Shown piece by piece: positions 26,301-47,239 of a stretch of DNA of 64,000 nucleotides. Source of the DNA: an uncultured virus (IMG/VR IMGVR_UViG_3300037508_001334) (lineage: Duplodnaviria > Heunggongvirae > Uroviricota > Caudoviricetes); IMG/VR virus record IMGVR_UViG_3300037508_001334. One strand, given 5' to 3'. The number at the start of each line of letters is the position of its first letter. The stretch's first letter is position 1. Below the pieces are notes generated by a model, which saw only the letters and a program-made list of their open reading frames with translations, was not told the origin of the DNA and made no database searches. The position numbers and the translations under genes were made by a program.

Positions 26301-29300
26301 ACAACTGTAAATTCATATAATACTTTTGATTATGGAAAAGAAATACAAACAGTAAATGGAATAAGAAATTCTGATATTATTGATATTAGACCAAAAACTT
26401 CTACTTATAATGTTATTGAAAATTCTCCATCACCATTAGAATTTTATGGAAGAACTTTTGATGTATCAGGAAATTCTGCTAAAAATATTTTAGCATCTGA
26501 TGAATCTATTACAACCACATTTTCATTCTATCTTGGAAGAATTGATAGAATTTATTTGACTAAAGATGGAAAATTTCAGGTTAAGTATGGAGTTCCATCA
26601 GAAAGACCAGAAAAACCTGTTTCTATAGATGATGCACTAGAAATTGCAACTATAGATTTGCCAGCTTATTTGTATAATACTACTCAGGCTACCATTCAAT
26701 TCTTAGAACATAAGAGATATAGAATGGTTGATATTAAGCAATTGGAAAATAGAATTAAAAATCTTGAGTATTATACTGCCCTTTCTTTACTCGAATCAAA
26801 TACAGCAAATCTTTTTATTCCCGATGGAGACGGTTTAAATAGATTTAAGTCTGGTTTCTTTGTCGATAATTTTACATCATTACTTGCACAAGAAGATTCA
26901 ATTTTTTATAAAAATAGTATTGATATTGCAAACAAACAGTTAAGACCAAGACATTATACAAATTCTATCGATTTAATTTCTGGCCCGGTAACAGGTGTAG
27001 ATCCAACGGAAGATTTAGCATTTACCCCAATTGAAGGTATAAATGTTAGAAAGTCAAAAGATGTAGTTACATTAGATTATGCGGAAGTTGAATGGTTAAA
27101 GCAATCATTTGCAACTAGATCTGAAAGTGTTACTCCTTTCTTAATTAGTTTTTGGCAGGGAACGTTAGAACTTACTCCAGCAACGGACACCTGGGTTGAT
27201 ACTGTAAGATTAGAAGCAAAAGTCATTCAAGCTGAGGGAAATTATGCGCAAACTCTTGCAAATGCTGTCAGAACATTAAATGTAGATCCACAGACAGGAT
27301 TTGCTCCTATAGTTTGGAATGCTTGGCAAACAAACTGGACTGGCCAAGAAGTTATTAACTCAACTAGAGTAAGAACTGAAACTGAAACAGGATCAACTTT
27401 TGGTGTTGGTGGATGGATTAATGGTGGAAGTGGAGTTGCTCAACTTAGAAGAATCGAAACAACATCTGTTATTCAAGATAATTTAAGAGAAACTAGAGAA
27501 ACTGGAGTTCAATCAAGAACTGGTTTAAGAACCATAGTAACTGAACAATTTGATAATACTTCTGTTGGTGATCGAGTCGTAAGTAGAAATCTCATTCCAT
27601 ATATGAGATCTAGAAATATTCAGTTTGTTTCTAAAAAACTTAAACCATTAACTCAAATTTATACTTTCTTTGATGGAGTTGATGTAACTAAATATTGTGT
27701 TCCAAAATTATTAGAAATTTCGATGATTTCTGGAACTTTTGAAGTTGGCGAAAAAGTATTAGGAATAATTCAAAATACAGGATTAAATCCAAGTATTGGG
27801 CAAGTTCTGACAAGAATCTCATTTAGAGTTGCACAGTCTAATCACAAAGAAGGTCCTTATAACGCAGCAACAATTACTTATCCAAATAATCCATATACAG
27901 GACAAATCTTACAACCAACTTATTCGTCAACATCAAATATTTTGAATGTTGATACATTTTCACTTTCAAACCAACCACAAGGAGAGTATAGTGGATGGGT
28001 AGAATCTGGAATGATATTAGTAGGTCAAACTAGTGGCGCACAAGCAACTATCACTAATGTGAGATTAGTTTCAGATTTATCGGCAACATTGATTGGAAGT
28101 TTCTTTGTCCCAAATCCAAATACAAATATTCATCCAAAATTTGAAACTGGAACAAAAACATTTACCTTAGTAAACAACAATTTAAATGATCAAAACGCTG
28201 CAACTACAATTGCTGAAGAAGGGTTTGTTTCAAGTGGAACTTTAGAGACAGTTCAAGAAAATATTATTTCAGTAAGAAATGCTAGAATTCAAAACAAACA
28301 AGAATTTGAAGAAAGGGCAGTATCTAGAACTACAGGAACTCAAGTTGTAGGTGGCACAACTTTGTCCCAATCGAGAAGAGATGTTTTGGTTGGTTGGTAT
28401 GATCCCCTTGCCCAATCTTTCTTAGTTGATGATGAAACGGGAGTTTTCTTAACCAAATGTGAGGTTTTCTTCAAATCTAAAGATGATATGGATATCCCTG
28501 TCACCTTCCAACTGAGAACGATGCAAAATGGATTCCCAACTCAAAGAATTCTTCCATTCTCAGAAATTACTTTAGATCCTGGAGATATTCAAACATCTGC
28601 AGATGGATCTGTAGCTACTACGTTTAATTTTGATGCTCCAGTTTACTTAGAGGGTGGAAAAGAATATTGCATATGTCTTGCATCAAACTCAACTAAGTAT
28701 AGTGTTTATATCTCAAGAATTGGCGAAAATGATCTTCTAACACAGACATTTATATCAAATCAACCATATCTTGGATCTTTATTTAAGTCTCAAAATGCTT
28801 CAACTTGGGAAGCAAGTCAATGGGAAGATCTTAAATTTACTCTTTATAGAGCAGATTTCTTAAATTCCGGAACAGTTGATTTCTATAATCCAGAATTAAG
28901 TCGAGGAAATAAACAAATTCCAACATTAATGCCAAATTCTCTCAGTCTGATTTCTAAAAAAATTAGAGTTGGACTTGGATCAACAGTGCAAGATTCTGGA
29001 CTAATCTTAGGAAATACTGTTATTCAGCAAGGCACTAATGCAACTGCAAATTATGTTGGATCTGCTGGGAGCGCATCTGGAACTTTAACTGTAATTAATT
29101 CTGGAATTGGATATACTCCATCTAGTGGTGGATTATCAATTAATAACATCAATCTTGTTACAGTCACTGGTAGTGGTAAAAATGCAACAGCAAATGTAAC
29201 TGTTTCTAATGGTGTTGCTATTGCTGCAACAATTACAAATGGTGGAGTTGGTTATCAAGTTGGTGATGTAGTTGGAATTAGCACATTTGGTTCTGTTCCT

Positions 29301-30842
29301 GTTGGGAGGAACGCAAGATTTTCGATCGTTTCAATTGCAAGCACAAATCAATTAATACTTGATAATGTACAAGGCGATTTTGTTGTTGGGGCAGCAAAAA
29401 CAGTTCAATACATTAATAGTTCTGGTATAACGACAACTTTAAATTCTTCAACTGGTGGCGGTGTACTTATAAATTCTATAGAAACAATCAGTGATGGACT
29501 GCATATTAAAGTAAACCATCAAAATCATGGAATGTACTCCAGTGAAAATTATGTTACCATTTTCGATGCACAATCGGATATTAATCCAACAAAATTAAGC
29601 ATTGCATACAATATAAACTCATCTGGATCAATTAGTGTTGATAACGCATCTAATTTTGCAACTTTTGAAAATGTTGGTGTTGGAACAACTAACCCGGGTT
29701 ATCTATTAATAGGTGATGAAATTATCAAATATACTTCAGTTTCTGGTAATTTAATTGGTGGTGATATCTCTAGAGGGACAAATTCAATGAATTACCCAAC
29801 AGGAACTCCAGTTTACAAATATGAGCTGGGAGGAGTCTCTTTAAAAAGAATTAATAAGACCCATTATTTAAATGATGTTACTGTTTCAGATGCAATAACA
29901 TTCGATTCTTATCATATAAAACTTGATATGGGAGATATGGGCCAAAATGGCATTGGTAGAACTGACGGTGTTGGTTATCCGCAACTTTATATCAATCAAA
30001 CTAAATCTGCTGGTGGATATAAAACTAAAGCAACACAAAATATGCCTTATGAAATAGTTACTCCTATTGTTCAGAATTTAACAGTAAGAGGAACTTCTTT
30101 AAGTGCTTCCCTAAGAACAGTTACAGCATCAAGTATAAGTGGAAATGAAATTCCATTCATTGATAATGGATTTGAAACTATTAGTATTGGAAAACCCAAT
30201 TATTTGGATAGCACAAGAATAATATGTTCCAGAGTTAATGAAAATTTAAAATTATTAAATCTTCCCGGAAACAAATCAATGAATCTTAGATTACAACTTG
30301 ATACGGTAGATTCTAGACTAACTCCAGTTCTTGATACACAAAGAATAAGTACAATATTAACTTCAAACAGAGTTAACAACGTTATTTCAAATTATGCAAC
30401 TGATTCTAGAGTCAATACAGTTGATCAAGATCCCACCGCATTCCAATATATTTCAAAAGAAATTAATTTGGAAAATGGAGCAAGTTCCATCAAAATTCTG
30501 TTAAATGCTCATATTAATCAGTATTGCGATATAAGAGCTTTATATGCTATTAGTGAAAAACCAAACTTCAATCCAGTTTTCATACCATTCCCAGGATATA
30601 TGAATTTAAATACTAAAAATGAAATTATAAATTTTGCCGATAGTGACGGGAGATCTGATGTATTTGTAACCCCAACTCAATCATTGGGATTTGAAACTTC
30701 TGAGATAGAATTCAAAGAATACTCATTCACTATAGATAAATTGCCATCATTTAAATCATATAGAATTAAATTAGTTCTAACATCAACAAATCAAGTTTAT
30801 GTTCCAAGAATTAAAGATTTGAGAGTAATTGCTTTGGCATAA
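23367..30842 (+). CDS. Large virion structural protein (DUF4815/VrlC-like, 2491 aa)
   Basis: NVSPYFDDF, LFKPGYPVQARELTTLQS, APGADR, RFKSGFFVDNF, DPLAQSF, GSLFKSQN..TW and P.IKDLRVIALA motifs. Confidence 0.85.
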   Translation: MSQETNLNVSPYFDDFDANNDYYKVLFKPGYPVQARELTTLQSILQNQIEKFGQHFFKEGAKVIPGNTGYTQLYYAVELQNTYLGIPVSAYADQLIGTKITGQTSGVTAVVDKILLPADSERGNLTLYVNYLASNTQNNSTQQFADGELLSSNTQITSGLLGNSLISVGQPFASTIAQNATSIGSAFSITNGVYFIRGHFVTVESETLILDQYSNKPNYRVGLFVNEEIVTSDLDESLNDNSQGFNNYSAPGADRLKITVSLFKKSLTDFDDGSFIELATIKEGIIRSQQTTGYNSITDELARRTYAESGDYYVIPFDAALKESLNDNLGNNGIFNVGQFTYGGSTPSNDLSIYQISPGKAFVRGYECETISSTFLDCPKPRTTKTLENQSLNYNTGPTFKLNRVYGSPKIGIGNTYILSLRDSRVGSSQTTSAGKEIGVARVYDFRLESGSYDTSNSNLNQWNISLYDIQTITEITLNEPITLSVPTFIRGKNSGATAFIKTAVTAGTAVTVYEKTGDFILNESFIIDGIENSRVAIAITSYGISDVKSVYGIVGSASTFSADTVQSLGFNVGIATISTSSGGVSTVTSPNSLFPGKIVKLGNLVQYSDPSSRDPIIAKVVGLGNTTISITGVTGVSGISSGFLPSSTLNATDFKILTTNLETSTDNTLYTRLPKVNISNVDLTNAVLGIRTVFSVNISGNQTTTVTAGPNETFLPFDEERYALITSSGQTEVLTSDKLQIDSTGSQLAIYNLSTSSDTGATLIATTRKIKPKAKLKRKNKVNSIIVDKSKYQGSGIGSTTLNDGLTYGKYPFGTRVQDEIISLNTSDIIEIHGIFESANTSDASAPTLDLSSISGPTATTSDLIVGERLIGQTSGAVAIFTEKLNDTKISFIYKNQNIFKEGETLKFEESKIQSIIQAIDSPSFDVSSNFTFTNGQESTFYDYGTVKRKFNLQEPTKKLKIYFSNGYYESNDDGDITTVNSYNTFDYGKEIQTVNGIRNSDIIDIRPKTSTYNVIENSPSPLEFYGRTFDVSGNSAKNILASDESITTTFSFYLGRIDRIYLTKDGKFQVKYGVPSERPEKPVSIDDALEIATIDLPAYLYNTTQATIQFLEHKRYRMVDIKQLENRIKNLEYYTALSLLESNTANLFIPDGDGLNRFKSGFFVDNFTSLLAQEDSIFYKNSIDIANKQLRPRHYTNSIDLISGPVTGVDPTEDLAFTPIEGINVRKSKDVVTLDYAEVEWLKQSFATRSESVTPFLISFWQGTLELTPATDTWVDTVRLEAKVIQAEGNYAQTLANAVRTLNVDPQTGFAPIVWNAWQTNWTGQEVINSTRVRTETETGSTFGVGGWINGGSGVAQLRRIETTSVIQDNLRETRETGVQSRTGLRTIVTEQFDNTSVGDRVVSRNLIPYMRSRNIQFVSKKLKPLTQIYTFFDGVDVTKYCVPKLLEISMISGTFEVGEKVLGIIQNTGLNPSIGQVLTRISFRVAQSNHKEGPYNAATITYPNNPYTGQILQPTYSSTSNILNVDTFSLSNQPQGEYSGWVESGMILVGQTSGAQATITNVRLVSDLSATLIGSFFVPNPNTNIHPKFETGTKTFTLVNNNLNDQNAATTIAEEGFVSSGTLETVQENIISVRNARIQNKQEFEERAVSRTTGTQVVGGTTLSQSRRDVLVGWYDPLAQSFLVDDETGVFLTKCEVFFKSKDDMDIPVTFQLRTMQNGFPTQRILPFSEITLDPGDIQTSADGSVATTFNFDAPVYLEGGKEYCICLASNSTKYSVYISRIGENDLLTQTFISNQPYLGSLFKSQNASTWEASQWEDLKFTLYRADFLNSGTVDFYNPELSRGNKQIPTLMPNSLSLISKKIRVGLGSTVQDSGLILGNTVIQQGTNATANYVGSAGSASGTLTVINSGIGYTPSSGGLSINNINLVTVTGSGKNATANVTVSNGVAIAATITNGGVGYQVGDVVGISTFGSVPVGRNARFSIVSIASTNQLILDNVQGDFVVGAAKTVQYINSSGITTTLNSSTGGGVLINSIETISDGLHIKVNHQNHGMYSSENYVTIFDAQSDINPTKLSIAYNINSSGSISVDNASNFATFENVGVGTTNPGYLLIGDEIIKYTSVSGNLIGGDISRGTNSMNYPTGTPVYKYELGGVSLKRINKTHYLNDVTVSDAITFDSYHIKLDMGDMGQNGIGRTDGVGYPQLYINQTKSAGGYKTKATQNMPYEIVTPIVQNLTVRGTSLSASLRTVTASSISGNEIPFIDNGFETISIGKPNYLDSTRIICSRVNENLKLLNLPGNKSMNLRLQLDTVDSRLTPVLDTQRISTILTSNRVNNVISNYATDSRVNTVDQDPTAFQYISKEINLENGASSIKILLNAHINQYCDIRALYAISEKPNFNPVFIPFPGYMNLNTKNEIINFADSDGRSDVFVTPTQSLGFETSEIEFKEYSFTIDKLPSFKSYRIKLVLTSTNQVYVPRIKDLRVIALA

Positions 30843-32107: not shown

Positions 32108-33523
32108 ATGCTCAATCCATTTTTTTTACAAGGATCCAAGGGGGAACAGGGATTAATACAGGATTTAATCAATGAACAACTTCGTATGTATGGAGTTGAA
32201 ATTTATTATTTGCCAAGAAAATATTTAACAGAAAAAAAAGTTCTAAGAGAAGTTATAGAATCTGCATTTGACGATGCATATCCATTAGAAGCTTATATTG
32301 AAAATTATGAGGGATATGGAGACAACACAACTATACTTTCAAAATTTGGTATTCAGGCATTAAATGAATTGTCTATTACAATATCCAAAGAAAGATTTGA
32401 GACTTATATTTCACCATTAATCAAAGGAAAACCAAATATTAAATTATCAACGAGACCTAAAGAAGGAGATTTAATATATTTTCCTTTAGGGGATAGATTA
32501 TTTGAAGTAAAATTCGTAGAACACGAACAACCATTTTATCAATTACAAAAAACTTATGTATATACATTAAAATGCGAACTCTTTAGATATGAAGATGAAG
32601 TTATTGATACCGGTATTGAAGAAATAGATGATACAAATGTTGGTGGAGGAGTTACTGATAGTGGTATTGGTGGTGGTATTGCAGTTACTCAAATTCTTAC
32701 GATGGTTGGTTTTGGATCAACAGCATCTGCAACAACCACACTGTTAAATGGTGGAGTTAGATATATTACAGTAACAAATAGAGGTGGTGGGTATTCAAGT
32801 ACTCCAAATGTAGCAATATCTTCTGCGCCATATGGAGGATTAACGGCAAAGGCCATTGCATCTATGATTAGTGGTATAGTAGTATGCAATGATAACGTAA
32901 ATCCGCAAAATAAATCGGTTCAAAGTGTCCTTTTAACTAATCCTGGATATGGATATACTATAACTCCAGGAGTAAAGTTTATTGGTGGAGGTGGATCTGG
33001 TGCGAATGCAACAGCAACTATAGGAACTGGAATTATAGGACCTATTGTAGTTACTAATGCTGGATCTGGATATACATATGCTCCAACTATAACATTTGTT
33101 GGAATTGCTTCAGTTTCTGCTGCAGCAACTGCAATTGTAAGTGCTGCAGGATCAATTACTGCAATTAGAATAACTAATGCCGGACTAGGATATACTCAAG
33201 CACCATCAATAACAATATCATCACCATCGTTTGTTGGAATTGGAACTTATCAATATAATGAAATAATTACAGGAAGTATTAGTGGAGTCACTGCAAGAGT
33301 AAGATCTTGGAATTCTGTTACAAGTACTTTAGAAATTTCAAACGAAACTGGATCCTTCATAAGAGGAGAAAATATTGTAGGGTCTGCTTCTTCCGCATCA
33401 TATGTTTTATCATCAATAGGTGATTATTTTATTGAAAATGCATATGCTGATAATTTAGATATAGAACTTGAGGCAGACGGAATAGTAGATTTTACAGAAT
33501 CAAATCCTTTTGGAATGCCATAA
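32108..33523 (+). CDS. gp14: Neck protein gp14 (with inserted GxGY repeats)
   Basis: EQ.LIQDLINEQL.MYG, RPKEGDLIYFP, EHEQPFYQL, DFTESNPFG. Confidence 0.93.
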   Translation: MLNPFFLQGSKGEQGLIQDLINEQLRMYGVEIYYLPRKYLTEKKVLREVIESAFDDAYPLEAYIENYEGYGDNTTILSKFGIQALNELSITISKERFETYISPLIKGKPNIKLSTRPKEGDLIYFPLGDRLFEVKFVEHEQPFYQLQKTYVYTLKCELFRYEDEVIDTGIEEIDDTNVGGGVTDSGIGGGIAVTQILTMVGFGSTASATTTLLNGGVRYITVTNRGGGYSSTPNVAISSAPYGGLTAKAIASMISGIVVCNDNVNPQNKSVQSVLLTNPGYGYTITPGVKFIGGGGSGANATATIGTGIIGPIVVTNAGSGYTYAPTITFVGIASVSAAATAIVSAAGSITAIRITNAGLGYTQAPSITISSPSFVGIGTYQYNEIITGSISGVTARVRSWNSVTSTLEISNETGSFIRGENIVGSASSASYVLSSIGDYFIENAYADNLDIELEADGIVDFTESNPFGMP

Positions 33524-33568: not shown

Positions 33569-34570
33569 ATGTTTGAGTATTTTTATAACGAAATTTTAAG
33601 AAAAACAGTCATATCTTTCGGATCTCTGTTTAATAACATATCAATCAAACATACCAACAATTCAAATGAAGTCATTGATGTTATAAAAGTTCCATTAGCT
33701 TATGGTCCAACTCAGAAATTTTTAGCAAGACTTGAGCAATCTCCAGATTTAAACAAACCAGTTCAAATTACATTACCAAGAATGTCTTTTGAATTTACTG
33801 GATTGACTTATGATGCTTCAAGAAAGGTAACTACAACTCAATCATTTACTGTAAAGTCATCAACAGATGGATCTGTAGTTAAGAAAACTTATATGCCAGT
33901 TCCATACAATTTACAATTTGAATTGGCAATTATGGCAAAATTAAACGATGATGCTTTACAGATAGTTGAACAAATTTTACCATATTTTCAACCGTCTTAT
34001 ACTTTAACCATTGAACTTGTTGATGGAATTAATGAAAAAAGAGATATTCCTATAATTTTAGAAAATGTAACCTTTCAAGATGATTATGAAGGAAATTTTA
34101 CAACTAGAAGAGTATTGATTTATACTTTAAGGTTTACCGCAAAAACGTATCTTTTTGGTCCAACTCAAACAGCAACAAAAGATATTATCAAAAAATCTAC
34201 GATCAGTTATATATCTGGAGATTCAACAACTACGCCAATCAGAGAAGTTATATATTCATCCGATGTACGTGCAATTAAAAATTATACGGGAATAGTCTTA
34301 ACAAATCTCGCAAAAGATGTTACAACTGAAGATATTTTATTTGAAGTAAATGATGCTTCTACTATATCTGCAGACACATATTTGGATATTGAAGGTGAGG
34401 AAATTTATGTCAAATTAAAAACTGGAAATGTTCTTACTGTGGATAGGGGAAGAGATAACACAACAATTACATCGCATTTATCTGGAGCCGAAATAAAATC
34501 TATTACTACTACTGATAATACTTTAGTTGAATCCGGAGATGATTTTGGATTTGACGGTCAAACCGTATAA
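33569..34570 (+). CDS. gp15: Tail sheath stabiliser / terminator gp15
   Basis: YFYNEILRK..FG.LFN, VPLAYGP.QKFLARL, LPRMSFE, EQILPYFQP. Confidence 0.95.
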   Translation: MFEYFYNEILRKTVISFGSLFNNISIKHTNNSNEVIDVIKVPLAYGPTQKFLARLEQSPDLNKPVQITLPRMSFEFTGLTYDASRKVTTTQSFTVKSSTDGSVVKKTYMPVPYNLQFELAIMAKLNDDALQIVEQILPYFQPSYTLTIELVDGINEKRDIPIILENVTFQDDYEGNFTTRRVLIYTLRFTAKTYLFGPTQTATKDIIKKSTISYISGDSTTTPIREVIYSSDVRAIKNYTGIVLTNLAKDVTTEDILFEVNDASTISADTYLDIEGEEIYVKLKTGNVLTVDRGRDNTTITSHLSGAEIKSITTTDNTLVESGDDFGFDGQTV

Positions 34571-34574
34571 AAAG

Positions 34575-35015
34575 ATGGCAAAAAAATTTGATAAACTAAA
34601 TGACACGTTTAATGTTTCGGGTAAAATAATTTCTGCAAGCTCTGTAGAAAGTTCATTAGAATCTGAAATAGATAAAGTTTCATCCCCAATTAATGATATA
34701 AAAAAAGATTATGAATATACTAGAGGAAATTTATATTCATTGATTGAAAAAGGTCAAGAAGCAATCAATGGAATTTTAGAACTTGCACAAGAAAGTGAAA
34801 TGCCAAGGGCATATGAAGTTGCTGGACAATTAATAAAAAGTGTAGCAGATGCAACAGACAAATTGATGGACCTTCAGAAAAAATTAAAAGATATTGAAGA
34901 AGAAAAAATAAGTAAAGGTCCAACCACCGTCAATAATGCACTTTTTGTTGGATCAACTGCAGATTTGGCAAAATTTTTAAAACAACAATCTCAAGGAAAT
35001 GATGAAAACATTTAG
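34575..35015 (+). CDS. gp16: Terminase small subunit gp16
   Basis: DYEYTRGNLY, PRAYEVAGQLIK, NNALFVGSTADL; start reassigned to the ATG at 34575. Confidence 0.92.
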   Translation: MAKKFDKLNDTFNVSGKIISASSVESSLESEIDKVSSPINDIKKDYEYTRGNLYSLIEKGQEAINGILELAQESEMPRAYEVAGQLIKSVADATDKLMDLQKKLKDIEEEKISKGPTTVNNALFVGSTADLAKFLKQQSQGNDENI

Positions 35016-35136
35016 ACAGTTTCAAGAAGAGTGGAGTAATAAATATAAAAAGAGTATTAATTGCTCAAATCCAAAAGGATTTTCTCAACGTGCTTATTGT
35101 GCGGGAAGAAAAAGAGCAAAAAGTGAAAAAAATTAA
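35002..35136 (+). CDS. 44-aa putative internal head peptide (not in ORF track)
   Basis: AAGGA RBS; MKTFRQFQEE-WSNKYKKSINCSNPKGFSQRAYCAGRKRAKSEKN; N-terminus resembles the T4 capsid targeting sequence. Confidence 0.7.
   Translation: MKTFRQFQEEWSNKYKKSINCSNPKGFSQRAYCAGRKRAKSEKN
35038..35045 (+). promoter_or_regulatory. Possible late promoter inside the 44-aa ORF
   Basis: AATAAATA upstream of the 630-aa gene and gp17. Confidence 0.45.
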
Positions 35137-35153
35137 ATTAACCCTAATGAATA

Positions 35154-37046
35154 ATGCCCAACCAAATCAAGACACATAAAACAGTTGAACAAATTGCAAA
35201 AAAGCATCGTCTTGAGGTTGCTTTTATACAAAAGCAACTTGAAATGGGTGAACCAATTGAGCACGAGCATACTCAAGATCACGATTTAGCAAAAAACATT
35301 GCTCTTCAACATCTGGATGAAATTCCTGATTATTACACTCGTTTGAAAAAGATGGAAGCAGATGCTAAAAAACATCATAAAAAATTTAAAGATGTTACTG
35401 AAGAAGGTCTTAGAGATTGGTTTGGAAAATCTAAATCAAAAGATGGAAAATCTGGATGGGTCAATGTTGTGACTGGTGGAACTTGTGCAAGTGATGAACC
35501 AAGAGAAGGAACTCCCAAATGTGTTTCTTCTACAAAAAGAGCAAGTATGAGTCCTGCGGAACGGCGTTCGGCAGCAAGAAGAAAAAAGGCAGCAGATCCA
35601 GAACAACAACAAAAAACAGATGCTGCAAAACCAACATATGTTTCTACAGATAAACCTAAAAAGAAAATGAACGAAGAAACGGACAAAAAAGGTAAAGGTA
35701 GTGGCAAAAAAGATGCTTGCTACCATAAAGTAAAGTCTAGATATGATGTTTGGCCAAGTGCATATGCTTCTGGAGCACTGGTTAAATGCCGTAAGGTTGG
35801 TGCTGCAAATTGGGGAACGAAATCAGAATCAACTATGAACGAAGAAGAAAGATATTGTCCTTTATGCGATAAAAGAGAAACAAGATCTGATTGTTCTTAT
35901 GGTGGAAAAGCATGGGATAAAGTTTCTATAAAAGATCACGAATATTCAATGGTTCGTTCTGAACTTGAAACATTGATGAATGCTGCACAAAGACTTAAGG
36001 CAAAAGTTGAAAATGGTGAGGGCAGTTTAGAAGCATGGGTTCAATCCAAAATTACCAAAGCAGCAGATTATATTGATACTGCAGCAGATTATGTCGCAAG
36101 TGGAGAAATGGAGGAATCTGTAAGTCATACAATCAATCCCTCTGCACACAAAACTGCCCAAAAAAGAGAAAAAATTAGAAATATTGCAGTTAAAGGATCA
36201 ACTGGTGGAGAGAGATCTGTTGCATCTTCAAAATTAGGAGCAACTGCAGAACTACCAACGATTAAAAAAGAAGAAAAACTGGTTAGTAAAATTAAAAATG
36301 AAATTCTTGATGAAAAGTGTTGGCCAGGATATAAGAAAAAAGGAATGAAGACGATGTTTGGTAAAAAATATCCAAACTGTGTTAAAGCAGAGGAAAGTAT
36401 TACTATCGAAGATGCTAATGGAAATACTTTTGCTGAAGTTGTAGATTTAATTAAACCGGAACCAATCAAAGGATTTAAATGCCAAATTGATGAAGTAACA
36501 CGTCTCCAATCACAGTCAGGAAATATTATTGCAATTACTTTACTTTGGAGAGGAAAATATTACGGTATTAGAATGTTTTTTCCACAAATAAAAACTCCAT
36601 CTCGTCAAGAAGTGAATGACGAAATTCAAAAAGTATATCCTGGGGCAAAGGTAGTATTTCACACAATTTCAGAATTTACTCCTGGACAACCTTTGATTCA
36701 AGCAGGATTTCAAGGAGGAAGTTCCGGAAAACTTGGTTTTAATAAAAACTATGTAAAACCTATGGGAGAAGAAGTTGAGATTAATGAAGATTGGCAAAGA
36801 GTCAATCGTCAAGATAAAACGGATGGTTTAAGTCCTGCTGCGGTTAAGGCATATCGTCGTGAAAATCCCGGATCAAAACTCCAAACTGCAGTAACCGAAA
36901 AGAACCCAACAGGAAAAAGAGCAAATCGTCGTAAATCATTTTGTAAACGTATGTCTGGAATGAAGTCCAAGTTAACTTCCACTAAAACTGCAAGAGATCC
37001 AGATTCAAGAATTAATAAAGCACTTCGTCGTTGGAATTGTAACTGA
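35154..37046 (+). CDS. Modular basic protein, putative protease-processed internal head polyprotein (630 aa)
   Basis: Lys/Arg-rich Cys-paired modules separated by VTE, MNE, MNE, MEE, LDE, IDE and INE sites; lies between gp16 and gp17. Confidence 0.7.
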   Translation: MPNQIKTHKTVEQIAKKHRLEVAFIQKQLEMGEPIEHEHTQDHDLAKNIALQHLDEIPDYYTRLKKMEADAKKHHKKFKDVTEEGLRDWFGKSKSKDGKSGWVNVVTGGTCASDEPREGTPKCVSSTKRASMSPAERRSAARRKKAADPEQQQKTDAAKPTYVSTDKPKKKMNEETDKKGKGSGKKDACYHKVKSRYDVWPSAYASGALVKCRKVGAANWGTKSESTMNEEERYCPLCDKRETRSDCSYGGKAWDKVSIKDHEYSMVRSELETLMNAAQRLKAKVENGEGSLEAWVQSKITKAADYIDTAADYVASGEMEESVSHTINPSAHKTAQKREKIRNIAVKGSTGGERSVASSKLGATAELPTIKKEEKLVSKIKNEILDEKCWPGYKKKGMKTMFGKKYPNCVKAEESITIEDANGNTFAEVVDLIKPEPIKGFKCQIDEVTRLQSQSGNIIAITLLWRGKYYGIRMFFPQIKTPSRQEVNDEIQKVYPGAKVVFHTISEFTPGQPLIQAGFQGGSSGKLGFNKNYVKPMGEEVEINEDWQRVNRQDKTDGLSPAAVKAYRRENPGSKLQTAVTEKNPTGKRANRRKSFCKRMSGMKSKLTSTKTARDPDSRINKALRRWNCN

Positions 37047-37061
37047 TAGGTAGGATTTATT

Positions 37062-38705
37062 ATGAGTGATGTATATTTAGGTAATCCTCTTTTAAAGAAA
37101 GCAAATACTCCTATTGAATTTACACAAGAACAAATTATTGAATTTTTAAAGTGTAAAGATGATCCAGTATATTTTGCAAAAAATTATGTAAAAATTGTAA
37201 CTCTCGATAAGGGATTGCAACCATTTCAAATGTATCCCTTTCAAGAGAAATTAGTTAACAATTTCCATAATCATAGATTTAATATATGCAAGATGCCAAG
37301 ACAGACTGGAAAGTCTACAACCGTGGTGTCATTTCTTCTACATTATGCAGTATTCAATGATAATGTAAATATCGGTATTCTTGCTAACAAAGCCGCCACC
37401 GCAAGAGAACTTTTAGATCGTTTGCAAACTGCATATGAAAACCTACCAAAATGGATGCAACAGGGAATCATTTCTTGGAATAAGGGATCATTGGAATTGG
37501 AGAATGGAAGTAAAATCTTGGCTGCTTCTACTTCTGCTTCTGCGGTTCGTGGTATGTCTTTCAATATCCTCTTTTTGGACGAATTTGCGTTTGTTCCAAA
37601 TCACATCGCAGATTCATTTTTTGCGTCGGTTTATCCTACAATTACTTCAGGTAAAAGTACAAAAGTAATTATTGTTTCTACCCCACACGGTATGAACCAT
37701 TTTTACCGAATGTGGCATGATGCAGAAAAAGGTAAAAATGAATATTTATTTACAGATGTTCATTGGAGTGAAGTTCCAGGAAGAGATGAGGCATGGAAAG
37801 CACAAACTATTGCAAACACTTCTGAACAACAATTTAAAGTTGAGTTTGAATGTGAATTTTTAGGATCTGTTGACACTTTAATTGCACCATCCAAACTAAG
37901 AAACCTTGTATACGATGCTCCTAAGACTCGCAGTGCTGGTCTAGATGTTTATGAAGATCCAATAGAAGAACATGATTATCTCATCACTGTAGATGTTGCT
38001 AGGGGTGTTGGAAATGACTATTCAGCTTTTACTGTGATTGATATAACACAGTTTCCACATAAAGTTGTAGGAAAATATAGAAATAATGAAATCAAACCTA
38101 TGCTTTTTCCGAGTATTATTGAGGAGATTGGAAAAAATTATAATGAAGCATATATCTTATGCGAAGTTAATGATGTTGGAGATCAAGTAGCTAGTATCCT
38201 TCAATACGATTTAGAATATAAAAATCTTCTCATGTGTTCTATGAGAGGAAGAGCAGGACAAATTGTAGGGCAAGGATTTTCTGGAAAGAAAACTCAACTT
38301 GGAGTAAAAATGTCCAAGACGGTTAAAAAAGTTGGGTGCTTCAACCTTAAGACAATGATTGAGGAAGATAAGCTATATTTAAACGACTATGAGATAATAT
38401 CCGAACTTACGACATTTATTCAAAAGCATAATTCATTTGAAGCTGAAGAAGGTTGTAATGATGATCTTGCAATGTGCTTAGTAATTTATGCATGGTTGGT
38501 TGCACAAGACTATTTTAAAGAGCTTACTGACCAAGATGTTAGAAAAAGATTATATGAAGAACAAAAAAATCAAATTGAACAAGATATGGCACCATTTGGA
38601 TTCGTTTCTGATGGTATTGGTGAAAACAGTTTTGTTGATCAAGATGGAGATAGATGGTTTTTAGATGAATATGGGGATCGTTCTTATATGTGGGAATATA
38701 TGTAA
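37062..38705 (+). CDS. gp17: Terminase large subunit gp17
   Basis: YLGNP.LK, PRQTGKST (Walker A), LFLDEFAF (Walker B), VDVARG and DDLAM nuclease motifs. Confidence 0.97.
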   Translation: MSDVYLGNPLLKKANTPIEFTQEQIIEFLKCKDDPVYFAKNYVKIVTLDKGLQPFQMYPFQEKLVNNFHNHRFNICKMPRQTGKSTTVVSFLLHYAVFNDNVNIGILANKAATARELLDRLQTAYENLPKWMQQGIISWNKGSLELENGSKILAASTSASAVRGMSFNILFLDEFAFVPNHIADSFFASVYPTITSGKSTKVIIVSTPHGMNHFYRMWHDAEKGKNEYLFTDVHWSEVPGRDEAWKAQTIANTSEQQFKVEFECEFLGSVDTLIAPSKLRNLVYDAPKTRSAGLDVYEDPIEEHDYLITVDVARGVGNDYSAFTVIDITQFPHKVVGKYRNNEIKPMLFPSIIEEIGKNYNEAYILCEVNDVGDQVASILQYDLEYKNLLMCSMRGRAGQIVGQGFSGKKTQLGVKMSKTVKKVGCFNLKTMIEEDKLYLNDYEIISELTTFIQKHNSFEAEEGCNDDLAMCLVIYAWLVAQDYFKELTDQDVRKRLYEEQKNQIEQDMAPFGFVSDGIGENSFVDQDGDRWFLDEYGDRSYMWEYM

Positions 38706-38706
38706 A

Positions 38707-38937
38707 ATGGAATTAGATAAACAAATAAAATTAGGACATTTATTATTAGTAGATAGAAAATGTAGAGTATGCAATGAAATAAAAAATTTAATAGATGGAT
38801 TTTATCAAACACGTAAAGATAAGGGCAACGTATCATCATCATATTCTTATGAATGTAAAGAATGTACAATAAAAAGAATCATAAATTCTAAAAAAAATAA
38901 TAAATTTATATGTAAATGGGAGTATCCTGACTGGTAA
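38707..38937 (+). CDS. Small zinc-finger protein (76 aa)
   Basis: CRVC...FY...YSYECKEC; ends WEYPDW; ATG at 38707. Confidence 0.7.
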   Translation: MELDKQIKLGHLLLVDRKCRVCNEIKNLIDGFYQTRKDKGNVSSSYSYECKECTIKRIINSKKNNKFICKWEYPDW

Positions 38938-39020: not shown

Positions 39021-41204
39021 ATGGCGACTCCTCAATTATCTCCTGGAGTATTAGTCAGAGAGGTTGATTTAACGGTAGGAAGAGCTGATAATGTTTTAGA
39101 TAACATTGGTGCAATTGCAGGACCTTTTCCAATTGGACCTGTTGATCATCCAATTGACATAACAACAGAACAAGATTTAATTAATGTATTTGGTAAACCA
39201 ATTTCAACTGATTCGCAATATGAATATTGGATGAGTGCTTCATCATATCTTTCATATGGTGGTGTTTTAAAGGTTGTAAGAACTGGTGGATCAACCTTAA
39301 ACAATGCCAATGCTGGAGTTTCAGTTGCTTCAACAACAAGTTTAAAAATTGACAATTACGATGATTATTTAAATAATCACTCAGAAGGTACAAATTATAC
39401 ATACTCAGCAAAGAACCCAGGAAGTTGGGCAAATGGATTAAAAGTTTGTTTTATTGATGATTTAGCAGATCAAACATTGGGGATTACCACAACCAGTCTC
39501 GTTGCTCTTGGAGTAACAGTTGGATATGGAGTTACGGTTTCTCTTTCCAATCAAGTAATTGCAGGATCTGGAAGTACTTCCCTGTTTACTGGATACCTGA
39601 AAGGTATTATCACTGGAGTAACAACAGATTCAACAAACGGAAACAGTACAGTTGATGTAAAGATTTTTTCAAGAGTTTCCAGTACAGGAACTGAAACTCC
39701 AATTACTTATGCAGAAGGTTCTACTACTGCTGCATTTGCTGCATCAAGTACAATTAACTTTATTAACAATTCGGGAGCTCAATCTGGATCTGCAACCGTT
39801 GCTTCTATTTCTGATTGGTATGATAACCAAACTCTTGGTTTAACCAATACAACAATTTATTGGAAATCCATAGCACCAAAACCAGTTTCTAATAGATATG
39901 TTCTTGATAGAAACGGCAAAAATGACGGATTGCATATAGTTGTCGTTGATGATCTTGGAACTATTACAGGAAATCAAGGAACGCTTATTGAAAAACATAT
40001 AGGTCTTTCAAAAGCATTTGATTCAATTTCTGCAGTTAATTCTCCACAAAAAATTTGGTACAAACAGTATCTTGCTGATTTTTCTGCGCAAATTTACGCA
40101 GGTAATAATCCATCAAGTTCTGCAGATTCTTATTGGAACACTGCACCAAGAGCAACTGGATTTTCCGCGGCATTTACTGCGGTTACAACTGCAGATGGAC
40201 TTTGGGGACAAAATGCTCAAGGAATAACTTATAGTGCAATTGGTAATAAGACTTATGCATTAGGTGGTGGTGTTGATTATTCTGCCTCTGGTGGAATGAA
40301 AGCAACTTTAGGGGACTTGATTACATCATACGAATTATTCTCAAATAAAGATGAAATTCAAGTTGATTATTTAATTATGGGTCCAGGATTAGATTCGGAA
40401 TCAGATTCTCAAGCAAAGGCAAATTATCTTATCTCTACGGCAGGAAATAGACAAGATTGTATTGCTTGCATTGGTCCTCATAGAGCAAATTTAATTGGAA
40501 TTACAAATACTACTACACAAACTAATAACTTAATCAAGTATTTCAGTCCACTTTCATCTTCTTCATATGCAGTATTTGATAGTGGATATAAGTATACTTA
40601 TGATAGATTTAATAATAAGTTTGTTTACATTCCTTGCAATGCTGATATTGCTGGTTTAATGACAAGAACGAATATTATTTCATATCCTTGGTTCTCTCCA
40701 GCAGGTCAACAACGTGGAATTCTTAATAATGCAATTAAACTTGCATATAATCCAAACAAAGCACAAAGAGACCAACTATATCCACTGAGAATTAATTCAA
40801 TTGTAACTCAACCTGGTGTTGGAACTCTTCTTTTTGGAGATAAAACTGCTCTCACCTATGCATCTGCGTTTGATAGAATCAATGTTCGTCGTTTGTTCCT
40901 TACAATTGAACAGGCACTTCAAAGAGCTGCTCAGGCACAACTCTTTGAATTGAACGATGAACTTACAAGAGCAAACTTTAAGAACATTGTTGAACCTTAC
41001 CTCCGTGATGTTCAGGCAAAGAGAGGACTTTATGGATTCTTAGTTGTTTGTGATACATCAAACAATACTCCTGATGTGATTGATAATAATGAATTTAGAG
41101 CAGACATTTATCTGAAGCCTGCTAAGTCTATTAATTATGTAACACTTACTTTTGTTGCTACCCGCACTGGCATATCTTTTGAAGAAGTAGCCGGTACAGT
41201 TTGA
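39021..41204 (+). CDS. gp18: Tail sheath protein gp18
   Basis: SPGVLVREVDLT, PWFSPAG..RG, FDRINVRRLF, KPAKSINYV.L.F. Confidence 0.97.
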   Translation: MATPQLSPGVLVREVDLTVGRADNVLDNIGAIAGPFPIGPVDHPIDITTEQDLINVFGKPISTDSQYEYWMSASSYLSYGGVLKVVRTGGSTLNNANAGVSVASTTSLKIDNYDDYLNNHSEGTNYTYSAKNPGSWANGLKVCFIDDLADQTLGITTTSLVALGVTVGYGVTVSLSNQVIAGSGSTSLFTGYLKGIITGVTTDSTNGNSTVDVKIFSRVSSTGTETPITYAEGSTTAAFAASSTINFINNSGAQSGSATVASISDWYDNQTLGLTNTTIYWKSIAPKPVSNRYVLDRNGKNDGLHIVVVDDLGTITGNQGTLIEKHIGLSKAFDSISAVNSPQKIWYKQYLADFSAQIYAGNNPSSSADSYWNTAPRATGFSAAFTAVTTADGLWGQNAQGITYSAIGNKTYALGGGVDYSASGGMKATLGDLITSYELFSNKDEIQVDYLIMGPGLDSESDSQAKANYLISTAGNRQDCIACIGPHRANLIGITNTTTQTNNLIKYFSPLSSSSYAVFDSGYKYTYDRFNNKFVYIPCNADIAGLMTRTNIISYPWFSPAGQQRGILNNAIKLAYNPNKAQRDQLYPLRINSIVTQPGVGTLLFGDKTALTYASAFDRINVRRLFLTIEQALQRAAQAQLFELNDELTRANFKNIVEPYLRDVQAKRGLYGFLVVCDTSNNTPDVIDNNEFRADIYLKPAKSINYVTLTFVATRTGISFEEVAGTV

Positions 41205-41236: not shown

Positions 41237-41806
41237 ATGGCACACAGTATTCAAGATTTTAAAGCAGCACTCAAAGGTGGTGGTGCTCGCTCCAATCTAT
41301 TTGAAGTTGTTTTAACTAACTTCCCAGGCGGGGCAGAGTTTGATGCTAATGAATTTTCGGTTTTATGTAAAGCAGCAAATTTACCTGCGTCAAATATTGC
41401 ATCTATTGATGTTCCTTTTAGAGGAAGAACTTTTAAAGTAGCAGGGGATCGTACATTTGATCCTTGGACAATTACAGTTATTAATGATGAAGACTTTAAA
41501 ATCAGAAAAGCAATGGAAGCTTGGATGCAATTTGTTGGTCAATATGCTGATGGAAGTGGTGCAACCAATCCAAATAGTTATATGGTTGATGCATTAGTCA
41601 GACAACTCAAAAGAAATCCAAGTGTCGTTGGTGGAAATAATGTTGTAGGAAGTGGTCTTGACGTTGCTGCGCAGTATAAGTTCTATAGTATTTTCCCAAC
41701 AACTATCTCCGCAATTGATCTTTCATATGATAGTGCGGACACAATTGAAGAATTTACCGTAGATTTCCAAGTACAATACTGGTCACCATATACAGGTGAA
41801 AATTGA
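41237..41806 (+). CDS. gp19: Tail tube protein gp19
   Basis: GGARSNLFEV, VPFRGR..KVAGDRTF..W.ITVIND, IEEFTV.F. Confidence 0.96.
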   Translation: MAHSIQDFKAALKGGGARSNLFEVVLTNFPGGAEFDANEFSVLCKAANLPASNIASIDVPFRGRTFKVAGDRTFDPWTITVINDEDFKIRKAMEAWMQFVGQYADGSGATNPNSYMVDALVRQLKRNPSVVGGNNVVGSGLDVAAQYKFYSIFPTTISAIDLSYDSADTIEEFTVDFQVQYWSPYTGEN

Positions 41807-41843: not shown

Positions 41844-43532
41844 ATGGCAAAGTTATTTGGATTTTCTATTGAAGATAGTGAACCATTATCTCCGAGTGTA
41901 GTTTCTCCCGTTGCACCTAATAGTGAAGATGGGAGTGATTTTTATCTATCTAGTGGATTTTTTGGATCATACGTAGATATTGAAGGCGTTTATAGAACCG
42001 AATTTGATTTAATTAAAAGATATCGTGAAATGTCGCTTCATCCAGAGTGTGATAGCGCCATTGAGGATATTGTTAACGAAGCAATTGTAAGTGACACTAA
42101 TGATAGTCCAGTATCAATTGAACTATCAAATTTGAATGCAAGTGATGCGATAAAGAAAAAAATTAGAGATGAATTTAGATATATTTTAGAACTATTGGAT
42201 TTTGATAGAAAATCTCACGAAATCTACAGAAATTGGTATGTTGATGGAAGACTCTACTATCATAAAGTAATTGATTTAAAAAACCCACACGAAGGAATTA
42301 AAGAACTTCGTTACATAGATGCAATGAAAATGCGTTATGTGCGTCAACAAAGACAAACGGAAAAGGATAAAAAAATTTATAGATTAGCGAATGTAAATAT
42401 TGATGATCCAATGTCTTATGAATTTCCAGAAATTGAGGAATATTACGTTTATAATCCAAAAATGACTTATCCAACAACCAACCCATCTTCTTTGGGTGGA
42501 ACTGGAGGCATTAAGTTTTCAAAAGACTCTATTACATACTGTACTTCAGGTCTTGTAGATAGAAACAAAGGTTCAACTCTTTCATATCTACACAAAGCAA
42601 TTAAATCCCTCAATCAACTTCGTATGATTGAAGATAGTCTCGTCATTTATAGATTGTCTCGTGCTCCAGAAAGAAGAATTTTTTATATTGATGTTGGAAA
42701 TCTACCAAAAGTAAAAGCAGAGCAATATCTCCGTGATGTAATGATGCGTTATAGAAATAAGATGGTCTATGACGCAAACACTGGAGAAATTCGTGACGAT
42801 AAAAAATTTATGGCAATGCTTGAAGATTTTTGGCTTCCAAGAAGAGAAGGTGGTAGAGGCACTGAAATTTCCACTCTTCCTGGAGGACAAAATCTTGGAG
42901 AAATTACAGATATTGAATATTTTAAGAAAAAACTCTATCGTTCATTGAATGTTCCCCCATCAAGAATGGATGGAGAAGGTGGATTTAATCTTGGTCGTTC
43001 ATCTGAAATTCTTCGTGATGAAGTTAAATTCAGTAAATTCGTTGCACGTTTAAGAAAAAGATTTTCTTATATGTTCAATGATATGTTAAAGACACAATTG
43101 ATTTTAAAGAATATCATTACTCCAGAAGATTGGGAGATGATGGATGAACATATTCAGTATGATTTTCTTTATGATAATCATTTTGCAGAACTTAAAGATG
43201 CTGAACTTTTAAATGAGAGATTGAGTATGGTTCAAGTTGCAGAACCATATGTCGGAAAATATTTTTCTCAAGATTATGTGAGAAGAAAAATTCTTCGTCA
43301 AACTGATGAAGAAATTGTTGAGCAAGATAAAATTATTAAGAAAGAAATTAAAGATGGGGTGATTCCGGATCCAAATGTTCCGGTAGATCCAACAACAGGA
43401 ATGCCTTTAGGACCAGAAACATCACAGATGGATTTAGGTAAGCCAGTGATGGAGCCAAATCTTGATGCTGATGGTGCTGCAACAGAAGTAAATGCAAAAG
43501 TTGCAGAAATGCCCAAGGGTGGAGAGATATAA
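41844..43532 (+). CDS. gp20: Portal protein gp20
   Basis: YRLSRAPERRIFYIDVGNLPK.KAEQYL, EDFWLPRREGGRGTEI. Confidence 0.97.
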   Translation: MAKLFGFSIEDSEPLSPSVVSPVAPNSEDGSDFYLSSGFFGSYVDIEGVYRTEFDLIKRYREMSLHPECDSAIEDIVNEAIVSDTNDSPVSIELSNLNASDAIKKKIRDEFRYILELLDFDRKSHEIYRNWYVDGRLYYHKVIDLKNPHEGIKELRYIDAMKMRYVRQQRQTEKDKKIYRLANVNIDDPMSYEFPEIEEYYVYNPKMTYPTTNPSSLGGTGGIKFSKDSITYCTSGLVDRNKGSTLSYLHKAIKSLNQLRMIEDSLVIYRLSRAPERRIFYIDVGNLPKVKAEQYLRDVMMRYRNKMVYDANTGEIRDDKKFMAMLEDFWLPRREGGRGTEISTLPGGQNLGEITDIEYFKKKLYRSLNVPPSRMDGEGGFNLGRSSEILRDEVKFSKFVARLRKRFSYMFNDMLKTQLILKNIITPEDWEMMDEHIQYDFLYDNHFAELKDAELLNERLSMVQVAEPYVGKYFSQDYVRRKILRQTDEEIVEQDKIIKKEIKDGVIPDPNVPVDPTTGMPLGPETSQMDLGKPVMEPNLDADGAATEVNAKVAEMPKGGEI

Positions 43533-46690: not shown

Positions 46691-47239
46691 ATGACTCATA
46701 GACCAGTTGGTGCAGGTTCATCATTTGCATTTAGTGCAGGAACTGCTACCACATCATCAGCATTTACTGTTCAATCAGATACATTGAGAGTTGTTGCAAC
46801 CGGCGCAGCATTTATTTCTGTGGGAGCAACTCCTTTTGCAACTTCTGCTGATTACTATGTTATTGCAAATACTCCAGCAACAATTGCTTTAACAAAAGCA
46901 TCAAATAGAGTTGTTGGAGTTACAACAGGAACCACCACGATTGTTACGGTTCCAGAAGGAACTCAAGTTCCATTTGGTGTTGGCGATTATGTAACTCTCA
47001 CTGCAAGTGGACAGTCATATTATAACTTTACTCATCAAAGAGTAATTTCAGTTGATACGACTTCAAATGTTGGTGGATATTATCAAACAAGAATGACGGT
47101 TGATTATAATTCAAGTGGCATCGTAACGGCATTTTCTTCATCGGATGCAACCGTTACTGCATCAAATAAAGTTTCTGCTTACGGTGTAGGAGCAGGAGCA
47201 CTTTATTACCAACAAGTACAAATTTCAGGACAAGCATAA
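46691..47239 (+). CDS. Hypothetical virion-associated protein (182 aa)
   Basis: Late promoter; translationally coupled to gp21 (TAATG); beta-rich A/S/T composition. Confidence 0.7.
   Translation: MTHRPVGAGSSFAFSAGTATTSSAFTVQSDTLRVVATGAAFISVGATPFATSADYYVIANTPATIALTKASNRVVGVTTGTTTIVTVPEGTQVPFGVGDYVTLTASGQSYYNFTHQRVISVDTTSNVGGYYQTRMTVDYNSSGIVTAFSSSDATVTASNKVSAYGVGAGALYYQQVQISGQA

Follow-up and report, generated by a model that had tools for sequence, protein, structure and literature searches.

The window analysed here is a stretch of 64,000 nucleotides (nt) from an uncultured member of the Caudoviricetes (IMG/VR record IMGVR_UViG_3300037508_001334), a T4-like cyanomyophage, and our subject is a gene inside its late structural block that codes for a protein of 630 amino acids (aa). 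This gene (35154-37046, + strand; window protein P0001; isoelectric point (pI) 9.5) belongs to the T4-GC119/DUF6321 family and lies between gp16, the small terminase (34527-35015, +), and gp17, the large terminase (37062-38705, +), just where a first-pass annotation of the DNA had placed it. The genes around it, from gp13 to gp20, are the late structural genes of a T4-like cyanophage: a gp13-like gene (31258), the gp14 neck gene (32108-33523, +) and gp15 (33569) on one side, and the gp18 sheath (39021-41204), gp19 tube (41237-41806) and gp20 portal (41844-43532) genes on the other. They are followed by gp21, the prohead core serine protease (Peptidase_S77; 47239-47889, +) and the proposed processing enzyme; gp22, the scaffold, with a very acidic N-terminal half (47944-49110, +); and gp23, the major capsid protein (49166-50602, +). 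In S-SM2, S-CREM2 and S-SCSM1 the family gene is likewise flanked by g16 on its upstream side and g17 on its downstream side, and in S-SRM01 and S-SM1 it comes after g16. The available part of Sullivan et al. (2010; PMC3037559) describes this interval as a hot spot of variable genes and gene flux, citing Millard et al. (2009).

The 630-aa product is best explained as a 'beads on a string' virion-associated protein: some nine small modules, each folding on its own, with flexible acidic linkers between them. Most of the modules are basic, and several contain a conserved cysteine pair. Pfam recognizes only its two ends. The first module, M0 (aa 12-68, 35187-35357; all modules are on the + strand), is a helical DUF5661 domain with a net charge of about zero (48.9 bits against a cut-off of 27), and the last, M9 (Pfam aa 553-627, 36789-37043), is a DUF6321 domain (PF19846; 55.4 bits against a cut-off of 28.5) with a net charge of +16 and the cysteine pair C597/C629. 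Between them, M1 (aa 86-165, 35409-35648) follows the stretch HKKFKDVTE83E and features GWVNV...C111...PKC123 with a basic tail. M2 (aa 183-224, 35700-35825), with the pattern DAC189YHK...SAYASGALVKC212RK, shows a weak likeness to DUF5872 that stays below the cut-off (E 0.022). M3a (aa 233-259, 35850-35930) is a predicted beta-hairpin with the arrangement C235-x2-C238-x8-C247, and M3b (aa 260-318, 35931-36107) consists of two long, acidic helices. A variable segment (aa 321-383, 36114-36302), helical in the 630-aa protein, comes next; among 50 close homologues its mean gap fraction is 0.58 over aa 320-371. M5 (aa 388-412, 36315-36389; KC389WPGY...PNC409VK) is again a beta-hairpin, M6 (aa 416-440, 36399-36473) has a low-confidence fold, and M7 (aa 449-517, 36498-36704) is the best-predicted alpha/beta domain, with a predicted local distance difference test score (pLDDT) of about 90 and no match to a known fold.

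Every cysteine position cited by the first-pass annotation is present. The pairs C111/C123, C189/C212, C389/C409 and C597/C629 and the trio C235/C238/C247 are invariant in the 50 close homologues; C443, which had gone uncited, is also present and is not invariant in them. M3a, a candidate zinc knuckle or ribbon, thus displays three invariant cysteines out of the four metal ligands of a knuckle, with no fourth invariant ligand and no Pfam match. The open reading frame (ORF) itself and the seven tripeptides proposed to mark the borders (VTE83, MNE174, MNE230, MEE321, LDE387, IDE447 and INE545) are likewise all there. The idea that such a motif sits at each boundary was correct for these seven sites and failed at the borders around 259/260 and 413-415 (AEE), which are motif-free. 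Five other [ILVM]xE sites, MGE33, LDE56, ISE507, MGE539 and VTE582, lie outside the seven, and of the 12 in total, 6 fall in the 21.6% of residues with pLDDT < 50. Similarly, the pieces delimited by the seven sites are basic in six of eight cases (pI 8.5-11.2), whereas piece 1-83 is neutral and piece 231-321 acidic.

Three independent lines of evidence support the borders. First, BLAST breakpoints in 150 diverse relatives, the best-scoring of 10,593 representatives (below), cluster at about 76-85, 166-180, 221-235, 256-262, 316-325, 371-388, 411-420, 436-440 and 511-550. Second, the 50 close homologues have indels behind residues 81-84 and 175 as well as at 228-229 and 320-387. Third, an AlphaFold model built on a 78-sequence alignment has no global fold (mean pLDDT 67.4; predicted template modelling score 0.30), so that an integrated single-fold structure is not predicted; residues with pLDDT < 50 (75-85, 151-185, 320-324, 364-380, 414-419, 426-450 and 519-544) lie at the proposed borders. 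In agreement with the earlier description of the modules as unrelated, comparison of shallow profiles for nine modules and a small upstream ORF by hhalign gave probabilities below 2% for all 45 pairs, so that no repeat family is detectable.

The modules are also shuffled. When nine module profiles built from close homologues were run over the 150 representatives, 108 different module orders were recovered, 89 of them occurring once; 86 of the 150 have an order unlike that of the window protein and only one has its full architecture. DUF6321 is the exception to this mobility, being the last module in all 123 relatives that have it and ending no more than 5 aa from the C-terminus in 113 of them. 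Relatives also contain modules missing from the 630-aa protein (KGFSQRAHC, CxxGYYYC, SKKQQ.FFG and others), and stand-alone versions exist, including DUF6321 proteins of 94-132 aa in BFVD and relatives of just 166 aa (P0232) and 185 aa (P0267). The two MNEE borders of the window gene (35667-35678 and 35835-35846) carry the same 12 nt, ATGAACGAAGAA, which could provide micro-homology for module exchange or be a mere consequence of the shared peptide.

Searches for a fold returned little. Searching PDB sequences with a profile of the family yielded nothing beyond a chance match (E 0.74), Foldseek with the 630-aa model found nothing in PDB at E ≤ 0.001, and BFVD yielded only uncharacterized family members. 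The VIA wide search with the whole 630-residue model reached a best Z of 4.6 without a fold being assigned, the ESM Atlas gave no usable match for residues 384-520, and Pfam scans of single modules at E values up to 10 returned sub-threshold noise along with the weak DUF5872 likeness of M2.

The family is large. By tblastn, relatives were found in 511 phage records, nearly all of cyanophages, with the best in S-SRM01 (60% identity). A first profile search scored at least 8000 members, all 8000 of 8000 scored candidates having E ≤ 0.001; a second, counting representatives of 50% identity clusters, gave 10,593 at E ≤ 0.001, 4,579 at ≤ 1e-10 and 770 at ≤ 1e-30. No paper containing the term DUF6321 was found in the literature. 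However, S-SM2_109, which matches the 630-aa protein, occupies the same slot after g16 and has a C-terminal DUF6321 like it, is labelled T4-GC119, a cluster for which particle data exist. According to the available part of PMC3037559, T4-GC119 is listed as a structural protein, ranges from 276 to 2985 nt in gene size, and is present in 15 of 16 cyanophages and absent from S-PM2; it is handled there as a hypothetical protein of variable size, and that part of the article describes no modules, shuffling or linker motifs.

The prediction that this is a virion protein fared well. Purified S-SM1 particles yielded 13 peptide counts for T4-GC119 by mass spectrometry, compared with 119 for gp23 and 18 for the portal (PMC3037559, in part). 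The detected protein, S-SM1_115, has the modules M3a, M1, M2, M5 and M9, in an order unlike that of the window protein. Two family members were detected in S-CREM2 particles (PMC10665884, Table 3): gp137 (4 unique peptides, 4.1% coverage), whose gene lies between the terminase genes and whose product ends in DUF6321, and gp160 (7 peptides, 13.1% coverage), which combines M1, M5 and M2. The homologue S-SCSM1_29 is a 'virion protein' by record annotation. Mass spectrometry was done on CsCl-purified S-SCSM1 particles (PMC9602691, in the part available); the supplement lists ORF29 only as hypothetical and gives no peptide data for it. That the 630-aa protein is modular and virion-associated is therefore well supported. 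The functions suggested for its pieces found no such backing. There is no sign of a DNA-condensing role, and the low counts (13 in S-SM1; 4 and 7 in S-CREM2) argue against condensing in bulk, with the caveat that Lys/Arg-rich sequences yield few detectable tryptic peptides; nor is there any sign of an effector role, as no enzymatic or known fold was found. Both roles are speculation.

We then examined 440 inter-module linkers from the 150 representatives, which have a median length of 14 aa and contain 17.1% Glu, 6.9% Asp and 15% Lys. The motif [ILVM]xE occurs 438 times in them against 198±12 in within-linker shuffles, a 2.2-fold excess. The reverse motif Ex[ILVM] shows little of this (211 against 198±12), [ILVM]xD is found 56 times against 79±8, and in the module bodies [ILVM]xE is depleted (221 against 367±16). 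Module edges as set may cut off conserved flanks; in linker parts at least 8 aa from any module the motif still counts 65 against 38.5±5.2. With one linker taken per junction type (47 types) the figures are 41 against 16.6±3.5, and one or more sites occur in 34 of the 47. Neither the excess nor the asymmetry is seen in other proteins of the window or in their Glu-rich 15-mers. In the sequences compared, the aliphatic-X-Glu excess of the family's linkers is thus directional and Glu-specific, and has the form of the T4 gp21 motif, whose consensus is worded L/I-X-E.

Conservation of the individual sites is uneven. Across diverse relatives, in-register conservation at the module borders is 56/68 for IDE447, 66/112 for MNE174, 64/110 for VTE83, 61/133 for LDE387, 28/78 for MEE321, 37/111 for INE545 and only 3/54 for MNE230. 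If register is disregarded, an [ILVM]xE lies within 12 aa of the module edge in 86/110 cases for VTE83/M1, 101/112 for MNE174/M2, 30/54 for MNE230/M3a, 68/78 for MEE321, 112/133 for LDE387/M5, 63/68 for IDE447/M7 and 89/111 for INE545/M9, against a chance expectation of about a quarter, as estimated from the shuffled density. Among the 50 close homologues P2 varies freely while P3 and P1 are retained; at E447, for instance, P1 is Glu in 50/50, P3 is I23/V23/M3/L1 and P2 is mostly E24/D15/K4/N4. A shifting register with P3 and P1 held and P2 drifting is the behaviour of a short recognition motif.

An enzyme that could read such a motif is coded in the same genome. The gp21-type protease gene is present, and gp23, as the first-pass annotation had it, has a matching site, L57-M58-E59|S60, which a MAFFT alignment places within about 6 residues of the LTE65|A site of T4 gp23. 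gp21 and its giant-phage relatives cut after Glu (PMC9026906, in part). What is shown directly is that the protein is modular, that its modules are shuffled, that relatives occur in virions and that the linkers have an excess of the motif. From there we infer a location inside the head, actual cleavage and a role after ejection, along the following lines. The protein would be made late and incorporated into the prohead, possibly by charge attraction to the very acidic gp22, by way of its DUF6321 end, or with the help of a leader-bearing small protein encoded upstream. The gp21 protease, cutting after Glu in aliphatic-X-Glu, would cut at least some of the linkers, and as a result of this proposed cutting the separate basic modules would stay in the head with the DNA. 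Judged from sequence, such processing of the linkers is plausible and has statistical support, though it is short of probable.

The third of these entry routes is suggested by the gene just upstream. T4 cargo has an N-terminal capsid-targeting sequence; in the T4 record, IPII and IPIII start with the leader MKTYQEFIAE and IPI with MKTFKEFTST...ITE. A 45-aa basic ORF in the window (34999-35136, +) has the leader MMKTFRQFQEE, its MKTFRQF start being close to the MKTFKEF of T4 IPI, followed by a basic cysteine-pair module, C..PKGFSQRA.C; it matches positions 1-7 and 10 of the full leader pattern and has Q at position 8. The ORF is shortened by an earlier stop, leaving 17 nt before the 630-aa gene. 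Of 80 related IMG/VR loci, 69 contain the C..P.GFS motif, and most of these have a 51-aa gene starting MKTFKQFQE[DE]W with a stop that overlaps the ATG of the main gene, an arrangement that suggests apparent translational coupling of the two. In several loci (L010-L016, L018) the motif lies within the main protein, in one (L024) it forms an in-frame fusion with the N-terminal end of the main protein, and in more distant relatives the module, leaderless, is the first of the main protein. Small neighbours of the family gene in other cyanophages have full leaders: MKTFKQFMSE in S-SCSM1_30, MKSFQDFLQE in S-B43, MKTLKQFLKE in S-SM2_108 and MQTFSMFFSE in S-CREM2 gp136, the last found in particles with 8 peptides. 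With these neighbours, the g16-g17 slot resembles a reservoir of head proteins that bear leaders. In S-SM1 the gene that immediately follows g16 is SSM1_114 (L124 1499-2035; T4-GC403); its product is plentiful in particles (60 counts), lacks a leader and resembles none of the window's genes, which illustrates how variable the slot is. We also considered HKKFKDVTEE (aa 75-84) as an internal targeting signal and rejected it, since diverse relatives do not generally have it ahead of M1.

A second leader-bearing gene of the window, far from the slot, codes for an S-adenosylmethionine (SAM) lyase (PF23780; 60040-60552, +). Its first 32 residues precede the domain and consist of a leader, MKTFKEFVVE, almost identical to those of T4 IPI and IPIII, and then a conserved candidate gp21-type site, IQE|TSL, the pair serving as a reference for leader and site in the window phage. 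Its homologues keep the leader and [IL]-[QE]-E|[ST]SL, as in P-TIM68 (MKTYKEFIQD...IQE|SSL) and S-CREM2 gp6 (MKDFDSFLEE...LEE|SSL); the latter was detected in particles with 19 peptides (PMC10665884, Table 3). The window SAM lyase is probably an anti-restriction enzyme that is packaged in the head and injected, and gp21-type processing of packaged cargo seems to operate in the cyanomyophage lineage.

To see how far the leader extends, start codons of ORFs of at least 40 aa in the whole S-CREM2 and S-SCSM1 genomes and in the window were scanned for [MVL][KQRN].[FYL]..F[FILVM].E. S-CREM2 has exactly five matches, the gp6 SAM lyase, gp13, the gp14 kinase, gp136 and the gp154 cytidylyltransferase, all among the 52 particle proteins of PMC10665884 Table 3; as the pattern was shaped after seeing gp6, gp14 and gp136, only gp13 and gp154 are out-of-sample. 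S-SCSM1 has two, an NMNAT labelled as a virion protein and named in the text of PMC9602691 (in the part available), and ORF30, which is not so labelled. In the window the SAM lyase at 60040 is the only match, which is informative given an expectation of 0.01-0.04; a looser version, M[KRQ].[FY]..F, was discarded, as six-frame space contains it about as often as chance predicts (3 observations, about 2 expected). A T4-type targeting leader (MKxFxxFφxE) therefore seems to be conserved in cyanomyophages and to mark packaged enzymes. The terms targeting, propeptide, N-terminal and internal protein are absent from PMC10665884, and a literature search combining 'capsid targeting sequence' and 'cyanophage' found only a T4 review. 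The virion-detected Cas9-like nuclease S-CREM2 gp12 (L089 7704-10313, -) has a leader-like LRFASFMAE|A at residues 17-25, away from the annotated start; translation may really begin at another position, or the signal may act from within the protein.

Taken together with the modular protein, these genes raise the tentative possibility that the g16-g17 slot is the cyanophage counterpart of the T-even internal-protein locus, a rapidly evolving stock of head cargo in which small genes and enzymes with the conserved T4-type leader would stand beside a combinatorial DUF6321 polyprotein library whose basic modules would be released inside the head by the prohead protease at the Glu-specific motifs of the linkers, each phage's own mix of small peptides entering the host with the DNA.

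A number of observations weigh against the cutting of the linkers in the head. First, in the 630-aa protein taken by itself, [ILVM]xE is at chance level (12 against 8.6±2.6 shuffled), as is [IL]xE (5 against 4.6±2.0). Second, the family-wide statistics come from the best-scoring rather than a random set of representatives, and the shuffles take related linkers as independent, which inflates the z-values. Third, P3 is often V or M and not the L/I of T4, and P1 departs from Glu before M1 (E 78, D 21, other 11; n=110), M5 (E73/D20/K18/Q13; n=133) and M9 (E55/A45; n=111). Residues 8 and 10 of the T4 IPIII leader govern its processing, and Asp at 10 blocks it (PMC9026906, in part), so that P1 Asp in relatives is a further difficulty. 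Fourth, the 630-aa protein begins MPNQIKTHKT, with no T4-type targeting leader (M-K-x-[FY]-x-x-F-aliphatic-x-E) such as packaged cargo of related phages bears, and the virion-detected S-CREM2 gp137 and S-SM1_115 also have none. Fifth, the particle proteomes considered give neither fragment sizes nor neo-N-termini, and Syn9 has the T4-GC119 gene, yet the protein was undetected in its particles (PMC3037559, in part). Finally, podoviruses have stand-alone DUF6321 genes: that of P-SCSP1a comes immediately behind the major capsid gene, and that of the pelagiphage Greip stands among small non-structural genes. Podoviruses of this type are not known to have a gp21-type protease, which indicates that the DUF6321 end module is independent of gp21-type processing. 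The cryo-electron microscopy paper on P-SCSP1u makes no mention of gp14, mass spectrometry or hypothetical. DUF6321 as a capsid anchor was another candidate that we set aside, its basis being terminal constancy and the gene order of one podovirus, with the context in Greip non-structural.

Some of these points fit a different account, in which the protein is packaged intact and the linker motif serves scaffold or capsid contact or caps helices. Such an account would accommodate the sizeable share of relatives, still a minority, in which Asp, Lys, Gln or Ala takes the place of Glu. Moreover, P2 is N, D, S or T, which are good helix caps, in 149 of about 373 motifs; helices of the AlphaFold model begin right after the motif, as at 86-91 and 547-552; and the motif persists in proteins where just 1-4 residues precede it (MINEEGLRDWF), so few that little would be gained by removing them. 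However, the commonest residue at P2 is K, and the preference for Glu over Asp in the linkers (438:56, against a composition of 17.1%:6.9%) is unexpected for charge or capping. The persistence of the motif while its register shifts is also typical of a recognition motif and not of a structural residue, and we regard intact packaging as rather unlikely.

Alternatively, the protein might be no head cargo at all and instead a minor neck or tail protein or a terminase-linked packaging accessory that never meets gp21, its basic modules binding DNA or some other virion component away from the interior of the head. The position of the gene between the terminase genes, adjoining those for the neck and sheath, would suit this, as would the lack of a targeting leader, peptide counts as low as that of the S-SM1 portal, and the non-structural setting of the Greip gene. 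Against it, the pattern of linker motifs would go unexplained, the P-SCSP1a gene directly follows the major capsid gene, and the neighbouring small genes of the slot bear T4-like head-targeting leaders; the non-cargo role is distinctly unlikely. Least probable, and in our judgement very unlikely, is that the border motifs are roleless fusion scars, the start codons and acidic N-termini of once-separate small genes that recombination joined in a hyperplastic region: Met does stand first at four borders (M172, M228, M319 and M537) and at P3 in 83 of 373 linker motifs, relatives begin at or near borders (P0175 at residue 228, P0145 at 385), so that part of the signal may be start-codon relics, M1 stands within 12 residues of the protein start in 13 of its 111 occurrences, and the region is the gene-flux hot spot noted above, but the other 290 P3 residues are V, I or L, impossible as relics of start codons, and the motif is enriched in linker interiors, depleted inside modules and conserved at P3 and P1 with a drifting P2.

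Processing of a packaged polyprotein by gp21 would have parallels in known systems. The T4 proteins IPI, IPII, IPIII and Alt are basic late products that go into the head and are trimmed by gp21 behind aliphatic-X-Glu, and the T4 internal proteins are highly variable between related phages (PMC9026906, in part), as is the DUF6321 family. Unlike them, the 630-aa protein is a leaderless chain of many modules with many candidate internal sites in place of one propeptide, and no sequence similarity of it to T4 internal proteins was found. In giant phages the cleavage motif is small-X-Glu and not aliphatic-X-Glu. In the giant phages phiKZ, 201phi2-1 and SPN3US, head proteins of the inner-body or ejection kind undergo multiple cleavages after Glu by a gp21-related protease, and the regions removed contain redundant sites (PMC9026906, in part). 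These belong to a different phage group, and cleavage there was demonstrated by mass spectrometry, whereas for the 630-aa protein it is conjectural. A third parallel is provided by the polyvalent proteins (Iyer et al. 2017; PMC5512222), which have 2-15 domains, lie beside virion genes, vary in architecture, and are predicted to be packaged and sometimes processed. They differ in having recognizable enzymatic or anti-defence domains and often a peptidase or MuF domain of their own; the modules of the 630-aa protein, scanned singly with Pfam at E values up to 10, match no polyvalent-type domain family, and the terms cyanophage, Synechococcus and DUF5661 are absent from PMC5512222.

Three further features of the region were noted. 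A 90-aa endonuclease VII-like ORF (phrog_4723; 38665-38937, +) shares about 40 nt with the 3' end of gp17, and an endonuclease VII gene occurs at the equivalent place in S-SRM01 and S-SM2. The gp14 neck protein is extended at its C-terminus (aa 260-430) by a part with matches to repeat domains found in large 'virion structural' and in baseplate or fibre proteins (phrog_701, phrog_708 and others). An ORF of 2491 aa (23367-30842, +) lies ahead of the neck genes.

Few viruses of the ocean match the T4-like cyanophages in abundance, and the non-DNA cargo of these phages is largely unknown. Since the family described here is huge (10,593 clusters) and its function unassigned, a testable mechanism for it has reach. 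If the linkers are cut, one common and variable gene family would supply the capsid with phage-specific small basic peptides, and by shuffling modules a phage could evolve new injected cargo at little cost. The leader pattern inherited from T4 is of value in its own right beside the modular protein: as it picks out the packaged SAM lyase, the NMNAT and cytidylyltransferase, and the kinase in two cyanophage proteomes, it could allow injected proteins to be predicted from sequence alone.

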